Source: Candidatus Omnitrophota bacterium
GTDB lineage: Bacteria; Omnitrophota; Gorgyraeia; Gygaellales; Profunditerraquicolaceae
Direction: 5' to 3'
Assembly (NCBI GenBank): GCA_041663665.1
Contig: JBAYMG010000005.1
Span: 1,354 to 65,353, forward strand
Length of the DNA stretch: 64,000 nt
The position numbers and the translations under genes are program-made. Shown here piece after piece: positions 1,360-54,875 of the stretch (positions within the stretch are counted from its first letter, which is position 1; each line of letters starts with the position of its first letter). The notes below the pieces were generated by a model, which was given only the letters and a program-made list of their open reading frames with translations, was not told the origin of the DNA and made no database searches.

Positions 1360-2910
1360 ATGTCAATAAGCAAATATCTTAAAAATAACCAAAATCAAAC
1401 AGTTGCCCGCTCGGCAACTATCATTAGTTTGGCTACCCTTGTTTCGCGTGTGCTTGGTTTTATCAGGGATGTAGTTATTGCCCGGCTGTTTGGAATTTAT
1501 GTTTACGCCCAGGCTTTTGTCATTGCCTTTCGTATACCCAATCTTTTTCGCGATTTAGTTGCTGAAGGGGCTGCGAATGCGGCAATTATCCCGGTTTTAA
1601 GCGAGTACAGCTTAAAACGCACTAAAGAAGAATTTTGGGAACTGGCTAACCTGTTGCTTAATATACTGTTGGTGGCCTTAAGTGTAATAACTATACTTGG
1701 GATAATCTTTTCTCCTTTACTGGTACGTTTAATTGCCCCGGGTTTTATTGCCTCTCCTGAAAAACTGCAAGCAACAATTAATCTAAATCGGATTATTTTT
1801 CCTTATATATTACTGGTTGGCCTTGCTGCTTATGCCATGGCGGTGCTTAATTCGTTAAAGAATTTTACTGTTTCTGCGTTTGCCCCTTGCCTTTTAAATA
1901 TTGCGATAATTGTTTGTGCGATTATTTTTGGAGAAAATGTAATTGGTCTGGCAAGCGGAGTTTTGCTTGGCGGCATATTACAGTTGGCCGTGCAGGTGCC
2001 TATTTTATATAAAAAAGGATTTCATCCGAAATTTGCTCTTGGTTTTAAACATCCGGCAGTTGTGCGGATTGGAAAATTAATGGTGCCGCGCCTGGTGAGC
2101 TCAAGTATTTATCAATTAAATAATTTTGTCGATTCAATTTTTGGTTCTTTTGCCTGGATTGTCGGCGATGGCGGGGTGGCGGTACTCTATTTTGCTTACC
2201 GGCTTATTCAGTTTCCTATTGGTATTTTTAGTAATGCCATTGCCCAGGCAATTTTACCGACTCTTTCCACCCAAGTGCTAGAGGAGGGTTATGACGAACT
2301 TAAAACTACTCTTTCCTGGGGGCTGCGCACAGTTTTTTTTGTGATGCTGCCGATTACCGCTATTTTTATGGTTCTTGGCGGGCCATTGGTTTTTGCTCTT
2401 TTTGGAGGAGGAAAATTTGATTTTAATTCCGGGGTTTTAACCGGTGATGCTTTGTTTTTTTATAGTATTGGCCTATGTGCTTATGGAGGGACTAAGATAC
2501 TGCAATGTTGTTTTTTTGCCCTGAAAGATACTGTTACTCCGACAAAGATAGCCGGTTTAGCTCTGGGGTTAAATATTGTTCTTAATGCGGCATTGATGTT
2601 TCCGCTTAAAATCAGCGGCTTGGCACTGGCTACTTCAATTTCAGGGACAATTTCTTTCTTCTTTTTATTTTTTATTTTAAAGAAGCGGCTGAATGGATTC
2701 GGAGAGCATAAAATATTAAAATCATTTTTACGCATCTTGCTGGCCTCTTTTTGTATGTCGGTAGTATGTTTTTTAGTCAATCGAGCGCTAAATTTTAGCT
2801 GGGCATTATTTTTTAGCGCGTTAGCTTATGTCGTTTTTTGTTTCATTTTTGGTGTTGCTGAATTTAAAGAGCTCATGCGGAAAATACTATGGAAAACCGG
2901 GAGAAGCTAA
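1360..2910 (+). CDS. murJ: Lipid II flippase MurJ (MviN)
   Basis: 516-aa polytopic protein with the canonical MurJ N-terminus (ISLATLVSRVLGFIRDVVIARLFG). Confidence 0.9.
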   Translation: MSISKYLKNNQNQTVARSATIISLATLVSRVLGFIRDVVIARLFGIYVYAQAFVIAFRIPNLFRDLVAEGAANAAIIPVLSEYSLKRTKEEFWELANLLLNILLVALSVITILGIIFSPLLVRLIAPGFIASPEKLQATINLNRIIFPYILLVGLAAYAMAVLNSLKNFTVSAFAPCLLNIAIIVCAIIFGENVIGLASGVLLGGILQLAVQVPILYKKGFHPKFALGFKHPAVVRIGKLMVPRLVSSSIYQLNNFVDSIFGSFAWIVGDGGVAVLYFAYRLIQFPIGIFSNAIAQAILPTLSTQVLEEGYDELKTTLSWGLRTVFFVMLPITAIFMVLGGPLVFALFGGGKFDFNSGVLTGDALFFYSIGLCAYGGTKILQCCFFALKDTVTPTKIAGLALGLNIVLNAALMFPLKISGLALATSISGTISFFFLFFILKKRLNGFGEHKILKSFLRILLASFCMSVVCFLVNRALNFSWALFFSALAYVVFCFIFGVAEFKELMRKILWKTGRS

Positions 2911-4154
2911 AAGAAAAAATATTACAAGCGCCGGATTCGCCCGGTGTTTATCTGATGCGCGATAGCCAGGGTCAGGTTCTTTATGTCGGTAAGGCTAATT
3001 CATTAAGAAAGCGCCTGCTTAGTTATTTAGGCGCAGGTTTATCTAATAAAACTATGGCTCTAGTGGATAAAATCGCTGATGTTGAGGTCAGGTTGTCGGC
3101 CAACGAGAGTATGGCTTTACTGCTTGAGGCCAACCTTATCCATGAATTTAAGCCAAGATATAATATTTCGCTCAAAGATGACAAAAGTTTTCCTTTTCTT
3201 AGGATTTCGCAGGAAAAATTTCCATCAATTTCTATTGTTCGCCGGAAGAAATATGCAGACGGCCAATATCTGGGGCCATATACTAATGCTAAGCTTCTAA
3301 AAAGTGCTCTTAAAATTATCCGGTATAGTTTTGCTTTTCGATCTTGCAGGAATATGCCCAAAAAGAGCTGTATTTACTTTAGGATTAATCTCTGCCCTGC
3401 TCCTTGTATTGGAAAAATCAGTGCTCGGGAATATAAGCTGGCCCTGGATAATATTATTCTAATTTTAGAAGGTAAAAATGACCGATTAGTTAGCAAGCTT
3501 ACAAAATTAATGCAGGATAAAGCTAAAGTAATGGATTTTGAGGCGGCAGCCAATTGTCGCGATCAGATTAGTGTTTTATCTGAGATGCCACTGGTTTATT
3601 CCGGAGATAATCGTAGAAAAGAGCTGTTGGATTTAAAAAATAGGCTGGGTTTAAAAAAACTTCCCGTAGTCATCGAAGGATTCGATATCTCTGACATTTT
3701 TGGTAAACTTGCGGTTGGCTCAATGGTCAGTTTTCGCGATGGTAGCCCGGATAAAAATAGTTACCGCAGGTATCGGATAAAAAGTTTTAATGGAATTGAC
3801 GATTATCGCATGCTAGCTGAGGTGGTCAGGCGGCGTTATAGACGTTTGCTTAAAGAAAATTTGCCTTTGCCGGATTTGTTGCTTATTGATGGTGGCAAGG
3901 GGCATCTTCTGACAGTTCAGGGAGTGCTTAAGGAATTAAATGTTTCTATTCCCCTGGTCAGTATTGCTAAAGAAAAAGAAAATATTTATAGCAATAAAAA
4001 TTTGTCCGCCTTAAACTTTCCTAAAGATGCCGTGGCTATGAATTTGATTCGCAGGATACGTGATGAAGCGCATAGGTTTGCTTTAAGCTACCATCATTTA
4101 TTACGGCGGCAAGAATTAATTGGGGCTAGTCGAAAAACAGGTAGATTAAATTGA
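2889..4154 (+). CDS. uvrC: UvrC-like excinuclease (GIY-YIG plus RNase H-like endonuclease domain; C-terminal HhH pair absent)
   Basis: GIY-YIG motif (PGVYLMRDSQGQVLYVGKANSLRKR) and the UvrC endonuclease-domain pattern (VVIEGFDISDIFG...GSMVSFRDGSPDKNSYRRYRI). The stop at 4154 falls where the (HhH)2 domain would begin. Confidence 0.75.
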   Translation: MENREKLKEKILQAPDSPGVYLMRDSQGQVLYVGKANSLRKRLLSYLGAGLSNKTMALVDKIADVEVRLSANESMALLLEANLIHEFKPRYNISLKDDKSFPFLRISQEKFPSISIVRRKKYADGQYLGPYTNAKLLKSALKIIRYSFAFRSCRNMPKKSCIYFRINLCPAPCIGKISAREYKLALDNIILILEGKNDRLVSKLTKLMQDKAKVMDFEAAANCRDQISVLSEMPLVYSGDNRRKELLDLKNRLGLKKLPVVIEGFDISDIFGKLAVGSMVSFRDGSPDKNSYRRYRIKSFNGIDDYRMLAEVVRRRYRRLLKENLPLPDLLLIDGGKGHLLTVQGVLKELNVSIPLVSIAKEKENIYSNKNLSALNFPKDAVAMNLIRRIRDEAHRFALSYHHLLRRQELIGASRKTGRLN

Positions 4155-27746: not shown

Positions 27747-27998
27747 CTATGCCTGATAACCCTGTTTGTTGCCGGAAAACATAAAGGGTTGTGAGGGAAT
27801 AGATTATTTTTAGTTACAGTTTTTACTCTTGTTTTAGTGCTGTTTTCGTATTTTTTTCCTGCGTTAATAACTTTCCGTAAAGTCTTATTTCAATATTTTA
27901 AATCAATCTGGGTTGCAGTAACTTTAGGTTTTTAATGAGTGCCTGCAGCCCTGGGTATATTTTTAACTTATTTATAAGATAGAAATTCCGCGAAAGAT

Positions 27999-28190
27999 GA
28001 TTTTCGCTAGACAAAAGCTTAAGGTGCCTATCCTGCCTCACTATGTTCGACAGGATTTCGCTAGACAAAAGCTTAAGGTGTCTATCCTGCCTCACTATGT
28101 TCGACAGGATTTCGCTAGACAAAAGCTTAAGGTGTCTATCCTGCCTCACTATGTTCGACAGGATTTCGCTAGACAAAAGCTTAAGGTGCT
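27999..28190. repeat. Tandem direct repeat array, 54-bp unit, about 3.5 copies (first unit 55 bp)
   Basis: ATTTCGCTAGACAAAAGCTTAAGGTG(C/T)CTATCCTGCCTCACTATGTTCGACAGG repeats at 27999, 28055, 28109 and 28163 (the last partial). The only variation is one SNP and one extra T in unit 1. Confidence 0.95.
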
Positions 28191-28199
28191 TAATTTTAC

Positions 28200-28234
28200 T
28201 TGACAAATGATACTTATATGGTATCATTAATGAT
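28200..28234 (+). promoter_or_regulatory. Promoter TTGACA-16-TATCAT overlapped by the operator-like palindromes ATGATAC-N7-GTATCAT and ATCATTAATGAT
   Basis: TTGACA is at 28200-28205. The inverted repeat spans 28207-28227 and overlaps -10, and a 12-bp perfect palindrome lies at 28223-28234. Confidence 0.55.
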
Positions 28235-40040: not shown

Positions 40041-40331
40041 ATGTTTACGCATGTAGTTTTATTTGAAATAAAGCCGAAAGAAGTGGCTAAGTATCGTAAG
40101 GACAGCCTGATGTGGGCGCGTTATACCAAATGCTCTAACGGGTTTTTAGCCTATTACACTATGCAGCGTTTTGGTTTTAAAAATCAATATGCCTCGGTGT
40201 ATCAGTGGGTAAAAAAGGCTAATCATGATAATTTTATGCGTAAATATCATGATTGGTTAGTTAGTAAATCCAGCGCCGAAGTTAAAGTTATAGATTATTA
40301 CAATCTTAAAGTAATTGATAAATTAATCTAG
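40041..40331 (+). CDS. ABM-domain (antibiotic biosynthesis monooxygenase-like) small protein, tentative
   Basis: HVVLFEIKP ferredoxin-like fold pattern in a 96-aa protein. Confidence 0.4.
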   Translation: MFTHVVLFEIKPKEVAKYRKDSLMWARYTKCSNGFLAYYTMQRFGFKNQYASVYQWVKKANHDNFMRKYHDWLVSKSSAEVKVIDYYNLKVIDKLI

Positions 40332-40350
40332 TTTTTGATATAAAAAATTT

Positions 40351-40447
40351 ACTACGTTCGACAGGATTTCGCTAGATAAAAGCTTAAGGTGCCTATCCTG
40401 CCTCACTATGTTCGACAGGATTTCGCTAGACAAAAGCTTAAGGTGCT
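40351..40447. repeat. Second locus of the 54-bp repeat family (about 1.8 copies)
   Basis: actacGTTCGACAGG + ATTTCGCTAGATAAAAGCTTAAGGTGCCTATCCTGCCTCACTATGTTCGACAGG + ATTTCGCTAGACAAAAGCTTAAGGTGCT. It is near-identical to the 27999-28190 units. Confidence 0.95.
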
Positions 40448-40457
40448 CAAAAAATAG

Positions 40458-40485
40458 TTGACAAATTCAAGAAATATTATAAAAT
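40458..40485 (+). promoter_or_regulatory. cspA promoter TTGACA-16-TAAAAT with about 120-nt 5'UTR
   Basis: TTGACA lies 10 bp after the last repeat unit. Long 5'UTRs are typical of cold-shock genes. Confidence 0.55.
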
Positions 40486-40614
40486 ATTTAACGTAGTGAG
40501 CAAGGGAGTTGAAGTCTTAAGCCGTTTGGTGAAAGAATAATACACCTTACGGTTTTTTGTTTTTATACTTCTTTTGTCCGCTATAATTATAGTGGAAAGG
40601 AGGAAGCAGAGAAA

Positions 40615-53903: not shown

Positions 53904-54287
53904 ATGAAAAAAGTTTTAGCATTAAGCCTGATCCTAGGTTCTTTGGTATCAATTTGCGGGTGTGCACCTTTGATAATTGGGGCAGCAGCAGGAGGGCTGG
54001 GGGCGTATGGGGTAAGCAGGGATACTGTGCAAGGCGATACGGATAAAAATTATGAAGAGCTTTGGGCTTCAGCTTTGAATGTTTCCTCAGCCTGCGGTTT
54101 GATTCAGCAGGAAGATGCTGCAGGTGGTTATATTGAACTAGGTACTCAATCTAGTAAGGTTTGGATAAAGTTGGTCCGTTTAACTCAAACTGCTACCCGG
54201 GTTAAGGTGTCTGCGCGTAAGTATCATTTTCCAAATATGGAACTGGCGCAGGATATTTTTGTTAAGATTATTACCGGGGTTAAGTAG
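53904..54287 (+). CDS. Hypothetical lipoprotein (glycine-zipper-like)
   Basis: Lipobox LILGSLVSICGC and a GAAAGGLGAYG segment. Confidence 0.45.
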   Translation: MKKVLALSLILGSLVSICGCAPLIIGAAAGGLGAYGVSRDTVQGDTDKNYEELWASALNVSSACGLIQQEDAAGGYIELGTQSSKVWIKLVRLTQTATRVKVSARKYHFPNMELAQDIFVKIITGVK

Positions 54288-54290
54288 ACG

Positions 54291-54483
54291 CTCTAGATAC
54301 TTGATCTTACTATCGTTCGATCAAGTATTTCGCTGGATAAAACCTTTGGGGTGCTCTAGATACTTGATCTTACTATCGTTCGATCAAGTATTTCGCTGGA
54401 TAAAATCTTTGGGGTGCTCTAGATACTTGATCTTACTATCGTTCGATCAAGTATTTCGCTGGATAAAATCTTTGGGGTGCTCA
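54291..54483. repeat. Tandem direct repeat array, 63-bp unit, 3 copies; diverged member of the same family with an internal 10-bp inverted repeat
   Basis: CTCTAGATACTTGATCTTACTATCGTTCGATCAAGTATTTCGCTGGATAAAA(C/T)CTTTGGGGTG repeats at 54291, 54354 and 54417. Each unit contains ATACTTGATC-N12-GATCAAGTAT, and the core ACTAT.GTTCGA...ATTTCGCT.GA.AAAA.CTT..GGTG is shared with the 54-bp units. Confidence 0.95.
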
Positions 54484-54547
54484 ATATTTTCTCTTTCTTT
54501 TTTAAGGAATTTGTGTACAATATAACAAAAGCTTGAAAAGTTATTTA

Positions 54548-54619
54548 GCCGAGATAGCTCAGTGGTAGAGCGCGGCCCTGAAAAGGCCGGCGTGGGGGGT
54601 CCGATTCCCTCTCTCGGCA
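54548..54619 (+). tRNA. tRNA-Phe (anticodon GAA), no encoded CCA
   Basis: Manual fold: acceptor GCCGAGA/TCTCGGC, D-arm GCTC-AGTGGTA-GAGC, anticodon arm CGGCC-CTGAAAA-GGCCG, T-arm GGGGG-TCCGATT-CCCTC. The T-loop reads TCC instead of the canonical TTC. Confidence 0.8.
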
Positions 54620-54620
54620 T

Positions 54621-54665
54621 AAAAAATAAAAAAGCCAGTTCTAAAAACGGAACTGGCTTTTTTAT
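54621..54665. terminator. Bidirectional rho-independent terminator shared by tRNA-Phe (+) and cspA paralog (-)
   Basis: A-run, then GCCAGTTC-taaaaacg-GAACTGGC, then a T-run. Confidence 0.75.
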
Positions 54666-54674
54666 TGCTTGAAC

Positions 54675-54875
54675 TTATATCTTTTTTACGTTGGTTGCTT
54701 GGTCGCCTTTTGGTCCTTGTGTAACTTCAAATTCAACTTCATCGCCTTCTGCTAAAGATTTATATCCATCTCCAGTGATAGCGCTGAAGTGGATGAATAC
54801 ATCCTTGCCATCTTCAGAAGTAACAAAGCCATAACCTTTTTGATTACTGAACCACTTTACTTTGCCTCTTGCCAT
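54675..54875 (-). CDS. cspA: Cold-shock protein CspA family (second paralog)
   Basis: [18 protein letters not shown]...VFIHF motifs. SD GGAGGAGGTGAG. Confidence 0.9.

Follow-up and report, generated by a model that had tools for sequence, protein, structure and literature searches.

Extragenic hairpin repeats of Enterobacteria, namely the repetitive extragenic palindromic sequences (REP) with their mosaic assemblies (BIME) and associated RAYT enzymes, and the ERIC sequences, reside in transcribed intergenic regions and serve as stabilisers or attenuators at the 3' ends of mRNAs; they are sometimes clustered, are conserved beyond the species level, and are gained and lost between strains. In mycobacteria, the MIRU-VNTR (mycobacterial interspersed repetitive units with a variable number of tandem repeats) are 40-100 bp tandem units in the intergenic regions of operons that are oriented with transcription and polymorphic in copy number. 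The BOX elements of Streptococcus pneumoniae (boxA-boxB(n)-boxC) are modular, with a variable number of boxB modules, are transcribed as extensions of untranslated regions (UTRs) and give rise to spurious open reading frames (ORFs) (PMC3049150). Elements of the IS200/IS605 type move through single-strand intermediates, insert without classical duplications and target the lagging-strand template (PMC3201880). Here we analyze array 3, a tandem array of 63-bp units that lies between a lipoprotein gene and tRNA-Phe in a 64,000-nucleotide stretch of the genome of a Candidatus Omnitrophota bacterium (assembly GCA_041663665.1, contig JBAYMG010000005.1, positions 1,354 to 65,353; hereafter, the window), along with two related arrays in the window and their relatives in other genomes.

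We conclude, with a probability of about 0.6, that array 3 arose recently by a tandem expansion, variable in copy number, of a single unit from a structured repeat family that is interspersed in Omnitrophota genomes. This family consists of discrete, structured intergenic units that can expand and insert, and it is comparable to REP, BOX or ERIC. Its architecture is distinct from those of BOX, REP, ERIC and MIRU, although in behavior it most resembles these elements. With BOX it shares the format of small, intergenic, mosaic repeats predicted to form stem-loops, with one module that varies in tandem, a bias for the coding strand, the spurious ORFs over arrays and, as is probable for the Omnitrophota unit, the location in 5' and 3' extensions of operons (PMC3049150); as is the case for the internal module of BOX, the copy number differs between strains (1 versus 3 and 2.5 versus 3.5 units). 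Unlike BOX, to which it has no sequence similarity, the Omnitrophota unit lacks flanking A and C modules, forms arrays of a single unit type, joins a covarying hairpin to an invariant unpaired tail that often is the sequence immediately preceding an ATG, and spans divergent Omnitrophota, whereas BOX belongs to one genus. The unit resembles REP/BIME in being a covarying imperfect palindrome in extragenic DNA that is sometimes clustered, is found beyond a single species and is gained and lost between strains; it differs in the lack of a 5' GTAG-type tetranucleotide, in the head-to-tail arrangement of units instead of inverted pairs, in its low density, and in that conservation concerns a 30-nt single-stranded tail and not the palindrome itself. 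Similarly to MIRU-VNTR, the units are polymorphic in copy number and adjoin the stop codons and start codons of the genes on either side. However, MIRUs carry short ORFs for translational coupling, whereas only one frame of the Omnitrophota tail is open throughout (one contains TAG, another contains TAA in the T variant, and the third is open in all variants), and the unit lengths of 53-63 bp are not all multiples of 3. A coding unit was rejected on account of these lengths and of the stops in two tail frames.

Array 3 and its orthologous sites

Tandem Repeats Finder delimits array 3 as 54290-54482 (period 63, 3.1 copies, 99% matches, score 379), in agreement with the first-pass annotation of this DNA, which had described three 63-bp units between the lipoprotein gene and tRNA-Phe. 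The 10-bp inverted repeat with N12 spacing and the family core that had been attributed to each unit are present in all three, the former as ATACTTGATC-N12-GATCAAGTAT (54297-54328, 54360-54391 and 54423-54454) and the latter as TTTCGCTGGATAAAANCTTTGGGGTG at 54328, 54391 and 54454 (3 matches versus 0 in 100 shuffles). The array consists of the following parts:

54290..54296, + strand: GCTCTAG(A) junction that opens array 3 (from the sequence)
54297..54328, + strand: hairpin of unit 1, with a 10-bp stem, an internal loop, a 2-bp inner stem and a 4-nt loop
54328..54358, + strand: tail of unit 1, TTTCGCTGGATAAAACCTTTGGGGTGCTCTA, with a 1-nt insertion compared with the family consensus
54360..54391, + strand: hairpin of unit 2 (sequence and family model)
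54391..54421, + strand: tail of unit 2 (core match and family model)
54423..54454, + strand: hairpin of unit 3 (sequence and family model)
54454..54484, + strand: tail of unit 3, ending in the family-terminal GGTGCTCAA (core match and family model)

The opening GCTCTAG(A) is the sequence found after each internal tail, that is, a 3' remnant of a tail, and the junction GGTGCTCTAGA precedes the same hairpin type in two other loci (L055 and L088). The family covariance model, which is described below, matches unit 1 over 54298-54358. As predicted with ViennaRNA, a unit of array 3 folds with -15.5 kcal/mol as RNA (z = -2.5) and -7.6 as DNA, into the same architecture as that of the family model. 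Two further arrays belong to the window:

28002..28193, + strand: array 1, 54 bp x 3.5, same family (Tandem Repeats Finder and family model)
40348..40450, + strand: array 2, 54 bp x 1.9, a 5'-truncated unit plus one full unit

All three arrays are on the same strand, and the model, run without filters, found nothing beyond them in the 64 kb. The proposal that array 3 is a diverged member of a repeat family of the window is supported. The 54-bp unit of array 1 has the stem TCCTGCC/GACAGGA, with one C.A mismatch, and the 54-bp variant folds no better than shuffled sequences (z = 0.75). Array 2 begins 17 nt downstream of a stop codon.

The history of the arrays can be read from orthologous loci. 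In a sister strain (another assembly, with an identical lipoprotein) the tRNA-Phe site holds one 63-bp unit, versus three in the window; in the sister-strain contig array 1 has 2.5 units, versus 3.5 in the window, and array 2 is unchanged. Species in which the lipoprotein is 71-86% identical carry no unit at this site, which there consists of the stop codon, 4-12 nt, the same T-rich stretch, the same TGTGTACAAT and tRNA-Phe. Array 2 is missing from four loci that encode an identical CspA (L094, L095, L097 and L099), in which the -35 TTGACA directly follows the upstream stop. Moreover, 98 kb of DNA from relatives, a sample that was fetched via proteins and hence not selected for the repeat element, contained no model match (E <= 0.1) except in the sister strain. 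Because relatives have empty sites with intact promoters and the copy number differs between strains, the window arrays can be regarded as recent, variable insertions beside promoters that would function without them.

The neighbors of array 3, with the DUF3568 lipoprotein gene on the 5' side and tRNA-Phe on the 3' side, are as follows:

53904..54287, + strand: DUF3568 lipoprotein-like gene (ORF list; Pfam DUF3568 on the identical protein)
54512..54521, + strand: extended -10 TGTGTACAAT of the tRNA-Phe promoter, outside the repeat (from the sequence)
54548..54619, + strand: tRNA-Phe (GAA), the downstream neighbor of array 3
54675-54875, - strand: cold-shock-domain (CSD) gene

The extended -10, tRNA-Phe and the cold-shock gene on the opposite strand are thus found downstream, as had been annotated. 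The DUF3568 protein has a lipoprotein-like N-terminus, and its gene ends with TAG at 54285-54287, 2-4 nt upstream of array 3. No terminator was found between this stop codon and the array. A type III toxin-antitoxin (ToxI-like) array was considered and rejected, as what lies downstream is a tRNA, cspA or Rrf2 gene and not a toxin gene.

Array 1 is followed by the promoter TTGACA-16-TATCAT (28200-28227) of the Rrf2/hybrid-cluster-protein operon and array 2 by the cspA promoter TTGACA-16-TAAAAT (40458-40485), each 11/12 sigma-70-like. From such neighbors, the first-pass annotation had linked the family to strongly or conditionally expressed genes (the cspA paralogs, tRNA-Phe and a stress operon). 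A reading in line with this link is an array of DNA binding sites, either UP-element-like or for an activator, that would boost the tRNA-Phe, cspA and Rrf2-operon promoters. Indeed, all three arrays end 6-30 nt upstream of a sigma-70-like promoter, a similar arrangement is seen in L081 (groES), L083, L064, L073 and L009, and the tail is A-rich. Nevertheless, we consider such a role very improbable, and the proposed tie to the neighbors is not supported, in view of the relatives that keep the promoters without units and of the copy-number change between near-identical strains. Furthermore, the spacing between the tail end and the -35 ranges from 6 to 39 nt, the periods of 53, 54, 55, 61 and 63 bp show no helical phasing of the units, the stem covaries instead of keeping its sequence, and units also occur inside operons, in an rRNA spacer and antisense to genes. 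Array 3 is accordingly predicted to be dispensable for the tRNA-Phe promoter and would not be a control site for the neighboring tRNA or cold-shock genes.

Several observations concern the surroundings of the arrays. The tRNA-Phe leader contains ACAAAAGCTT (54525-54534), which is identical to positions 10-19 of the 54-bp family tail, and repeat-less relatives keep TCAAAAGCTT at this position; the match could be due to chance, a remnant or a shared function. ORFs run through array 1 (27997-28203) and array 3 (54259-54525) on the + strand because 54 and 63 are multiples of 3; they would encode 68 and 88 amino acids and are likely to be mis-annotated as genes. Within window 40458-40614, the strong cspA promoter precedes a segment of about 75 nt that is conserved in nine relatives and ends with a CCGT...ACGG hairpin and a T-run (about 40520-40560), after which come a second -10-like GCTATAAT and a Shine-Dalgarno sequence upstream of cspA. 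This segment, to which the Rfam cspA thermoregulator gives no match, could be a leader attenuator or a small RNA. In L092, L096, L098 and L100 (about 2660-3000), unrelated insertions of 80-190 bp, in L100 including a 7-nt GAGCTAT tandem, separate the stop of a 96-amino-acid gene from the cspA -35; the equivalent of this junction in the window is 40331-40457, and it looks like an insertion hot spot.

The repeat family and its folded unit

A scan for the exact pattern TTTCGCTNGANAAAANCTTNNGGTG, with one genome per species, returned 23 genome loci, nearly all of them labeled Candidatus Omnitrophota (about 20 Omnitrophota species genomes); a few have other labels, and one Cytophagales match, located inside a gene, looks like chance. 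Metagenomes added 67 further loci. Every real match has a hairpin directly before the 30-nt tail TTTCGCTAGAYAAAANCTTAAGGTGCTCAA. The covariance model, constructed from 18 copies (7-bp outer stem, 2x2 internal loop, 2-bp inner stem, small loop and tail), has 132 matches in the collected loci, where units occur singly or in arrays of 2-4 with periods of 53, 54, 55, 61 or 63 bp. The stem type of the 63-bp unit, TACTTGATC/GATCAAGTA, recurs in L011, and the closely related stems TCCTTGATC and TACTTGACC are found in L068, L088, L055 and L085.

No matches to the family were detected in IMG/VR or among GenBank phages and plasmids, and a phage or plasmid origin was rejected on these grounds. Similarly, a known RNA family was rejected, given that no unit is matched in Rfam, whether the gathering threshold or E <= 1-10 is applied; the only Rfam matches are tRNA, rRNA and an FMN riboswitch. 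The latter (L055, 712-843, - strand, 106 bits) is directed into a composite repeat element, with no obvious downstream gene on the same strand within the 1.1-kb contig. Literature queries with the sequence string gave irrelevant results only, and queries combining Omnitrophota with 'RNA motif' or 'repetitive extragenic' gave no description of such a repeat; the family is apparently undescribed so far.

In the hairpin, a stem of 7-10 bp leads through a conserved UC/UC internal loop to an inner stem of 2 bp, which is closed by a small loop; in L003, L005, L019 and L033 an extra hairpin is nested in the loop. Across 105 distinct copies, standard pairs occupy 96.5% of the pair cells, whereas shuffling leaves 71.8% and sliding the partners by 1-3 columns leaves 24-50%; 189 cells are changed on both sides, versus 54 in shuffles, and compensatory changes affect 9/9 modeled pairs, all of these being numbers that lean towards structure because the alignment was fitted to the model. 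The same stem swaps are apparent in the raw sequences (TCCTGCC/GGCAGGA, TCCTACC/GGTAGGA, TACCTGC/GCAGGTA and TCCCGCC/GGCGGGA). Since the sequence of the stem varies while pairing is kept, the comparison argues for a unit that acts as a folded single strand and not as a dimeric protein site. Thus, of the two possibilities raised in the first-pass annotation, a strong hairpin is in accord with the folding energy of the array 3 unit, and a dimeric operator is rejected as the stem is free to vary.

The tail, in contrast to the hairpin, is conserved in sequence and not in structure. Conservation stops abruptly at tail position 30 and 1 nt 5' of the hairpin; therefore, the unit has sharp edges. On the 5' side of the hairpin there is only a weak T-N-A. 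Several interpretations of the unit were tried and dropped: sites of the CsrA type (the position of GGA is not constant, and it is missing from several copies), a sigma-70, sigma-54 or alternative promoter within the tail (TAAGGT has no consistent -35 partner, and the sole promoter-scanner match, TAGACA-17-AAAAAT, is weak), helical phasing (the periods vary between 53 and 63 bp) and a tRNA-like fold of the tail (no cloverleaf is possible, despite the likeness of GTGCTCAA to the D-arm TAGCTCAG).

A hairpin immediately downstream of a gene also brings to mind tandem, possibly decaying, intrinsic terminators of that gene. UUUCGCU follows each hairpin, array 3 begins right behind a stop codon, and the sequence 3' of the tail is often T-rich. 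However, there are only three U residues after the stem and the loop region is 12 nt long; the consensus terminator scan does not call the units, yet finds a canonical bidirectional terminator 3' of tRNA-Phe (54625-54666). Furthermore, units inside operons directly precede start codons, positions at which termination would do harm, composites of the L052 type possess a canonical terminator besides the unit, the conserved 30-nt tail is not needed for termination, and relatives are also without a terminator at the array 3 site. This explanation is therefore highly unlikely.

Genomic contexts

The unit is on the strand of the genes in 47/59 loci and on the opposite strand in 12/59; copies of the latter orientation often adjoin the stop codon of the facing gene (L058, L046 and L023). 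The window and loci L001-L090 show an extreme gene-strand bias that extends over 8-64 kb and is accompanied by a GC skew of constant sign (0.1-0.15), and such bias appears to be typical of these Omnitrophota genomes.

In about one quarter to one third of the independent sense loci, the tail ends within 12 nt of a start codon (<=12 nt). It abuts the ATG of glmS, lpxD, yebC, an SNF transporter gene and an msbA-like gene, the junction being CTCAATG at glmS, lpxD and the msbA-like gene and CTCAAATG or CTCAATATG at the yebC and SNF-transporter genes. In L035, L039 and L053, the unit makes up nearly the entire intercistronic spacer. In further sense copies, what comes next is a separate GGAGG ribosome-binding site (rpmA, dnaK and recA) or a sigma-70-like promoter, as in L081, where it is a groES promoter carrying CIRCE. 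Units frequently adjoin tRNA genes. The unit between tRNA-Glu and glmS is retained across genomes in which GlmS is only 66% identical, with 29/30 tail positions kept and the stems compensated. Given the retention of this copy on the one hand and the recent window arrays on the other, the family comprises old copies under selection as well as young ones.

These positions suggest a further interpretation, whereby the arrays would be independent regulatory RNAs, that is, decoys or sponges with several protein-binding modules (CsrB/RsmZ-like), and single 5'-UTR copies would be operators on which the bound protein occludes the AAGGTG ribosome-binding site. Such a system would fit with hairpin and tail lying directly at the start of translation in many housekeeping genes, several with envelope-related roles (glmS, lpxD, fabF and the msbA-like gene), with the arrays of 2-4 units without an ORF behind them and with the strong conservation of the tail sequence. 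Nonetheless, it seems very unlikely considering that the arrays lack a promoter and terminator of their own (array 3 begins 2-4 nt and array 2 17 nt after a stop), that strains show no constraint on copy number, that close relatives lack the arrays, and that 20% of the copies are antisense and about half lie away from start codons.

Two forward copies are located in an rRNA spacer, between tRNA-Ala and 23S. Together with the variable hairpin sequence, as in boxB, and GCTCA(A/T)T motifs loosely resembling boxA, they are reminiscent of a nut-like site of processive antitermination, in which the hairpin would be boxB and the tail boxA/boxC. However, a canonical boxA, TGCTCTTTGACAAC, occurs separately in this spacer, about 80 nt downstream, the tail differs from the boxA consensus GCUCUUUAACAA, and many copies are upstream of promoters or antisense, so that we give this interpretation hardly any credence.

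In L052, L061, L070, L080 and L083, the unit is part of a larger mosaic in which an outer stem, CTCCTCGCCT/AGGCGAGGAG, encloses a canonical terminator, in the order terminator, hairpin 1, tail, TTCGC plus hairpin 2 (ACTTAC...GTAAGT), GCTCATTRAA and promoter. This mosaic (outer stem, terminator, two hairpins and GCTCATTRAA) is not present in the window. The second hairpin is a precise 41-nt insertion that distinguishes the orthologous loci L083 and L061 from each other.

Fragments of tRNA genes were observed next to some units. In L105 and in L106/L107 (about 1950-2015), nt 1-13 of tRNA-Phe form a direct repeat around a diverged unit; in L002 (4455-4650), nt 1-16 of tRNA-Gln abut the tail end; and in L048 (641-760), a pseudo-tRNA-Ala is split within the anticodon by a unit in reverse orientation, the insertion being exact, from the hairpin foot to CTCAA. 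The tRNA 5' fragments flanking three units all begin exactly at mature +1. A target-site duplication was rejected, because the candidate duplications do not agree: the one at array 2 is 7 nt long and those at the tRNA sites are 13 and 16 nt long.

A model of the repeat and its implications

With respect to the function of array 3, the absence of a terminator after the DUF3568 stop and the gap of only 2-4 nt make it likely that the array is transcribed as a 3' extension of the upstream gene, so that it probably belongs to the 3' UTR. It would then extend the SNF-DUF3568 transcript, possibly reading on into tRNA-Phe, and by analogy with REP, BOX and ERIC, its three stable hairpins could obstruct 3'-to-5' exonucleases or bring about partial attenuation. 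New copies may arise by insertion or duplication via a single-stranded intermediate, and arrays may grow and shrink as units undergo slippage or unequal exchange. That the tail is invariant, in antisense copies too, implies a conserved trans-acting reader that would keep it so. At many loci, the unit has probably been taken over by the host as an intercistronic or 5'-UTR cassette; there, AAGGTG would follow the hairpin and an A-rich stretch and act as the ribosome-binding site directly before the start codon.

Several points weigh against this reading. About 20% of the copies are antisense to all neighboring genes and yet have perfect tails, and some of these are kept at orthologous sites upstream of tRNA-Gln in several genomes; a role as a ribosome-binding site at the RNA level is therefore insufficient as an explanation. 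In part, the tail looks invariant through an ascertainment effect, as most loci were retrieved with the exact tail pattern, which misses diverged members such as the unit of L105-L107; secondary copies found by the model alone have well-conserved tails too. The copy density is modest, with 3 loci in 64 kb, far below that of classical REP. The wobbles, 27 G.T versus 18 A.C mismatches, indicate only a weak preference for the forward strand and therefore do not decide between RNA and single-stranded DNA; strand assignment on this basis was dropped. Finally, no transposase or partner protein was identified, the carrier loci not having been searched systematically, and there is no consistent target-site duplication around the units.

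As for the spread of the family, an explanation that is compatible with our reading of array 3 is that the unit is a non-autonomous single-stranded DNA element moved by an HUH/Y1 enzyme, akin to the IS200/IS605-derived palindrome-associated transposable elements (PATEs) or to REP/RAYT, with the hairpin as the enzyme site, the tail end (..GCTCAA) as the cleavage site and insertion into the lagging-strand template. Several features fit: the hairpin is imperfect with a conserved internal loop, the ends of the element are sharp, and, as in IS608, other IS200/IS605 ends and PATEs, an imperfect subterminal hairpin is followed by a short linker ending in TCAA, the right-end cleavage tetranucleotide of IS608 (PMC3201880). 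The forward strand is G-rich in 80% of the loci, which makes it the lagging-strand template if genes run with replication; sites are gained and lost, with the exact insertion of a unit inside the pseudo-tRNA; and a unit 3' end resembling its own target would explain the head-to-tail arrays. In contrast to IS608, however, the unit has one hairpin and no left end, its TCAA is 26-30 nt from the hairpin foot instead of 10, and the weak T-N-A 5' of the foot is no conserved 4-nt guide. Furthermore, the strand bias is inseparable from gene orientation, as both coincide in every locus, and the long-term conservation of the glmS locus resembles host function, not parasitism. No Y1 gene, tnpA or tnpB was seen with the units, although the loci were not searched systematically, and none of the 10 window proteins that were scanned is a Y1 transposase. 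On balance, we view this route as rather unlikely.

More broadly, we tentatively raise the possibility that the hairpin and tail together are the recognition module of an undescribed, Omnitrophota-specific machinery, which would make the unit either a mobile element or a punctuation cassette. In the first version, at which the tRNA 5' fragments hint, a non-autonomous unit would be copied through a single-stranded DNA or RNA intermediate. In the second, an RNA-binding factor could set mRNA ends and translation starts in housekeeping genes, the rRNA spacer and tRNA operons.

The Omnitrophota are uncultivated and their gene regulation is essentially unknown, hence the interest of a structured, strongly covarying element that is found on the translation starts of glmS, lpxD, genes of the dnaK region and others, in an rRNA spacer and beside tRNAs. 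In practical terms, the arrays are VNTR-like markers by which near-identical strains can be told apart, and annotation pipelines may mistake the spurious ORFs that they create for genes. The deep conservation at some loci makes experimental follow-up worthwhile. If a conserved factor reads the tail, the repeat would point to lineage-specific control of mRNA processing or translation, or else to a new mechanism of mobilization.

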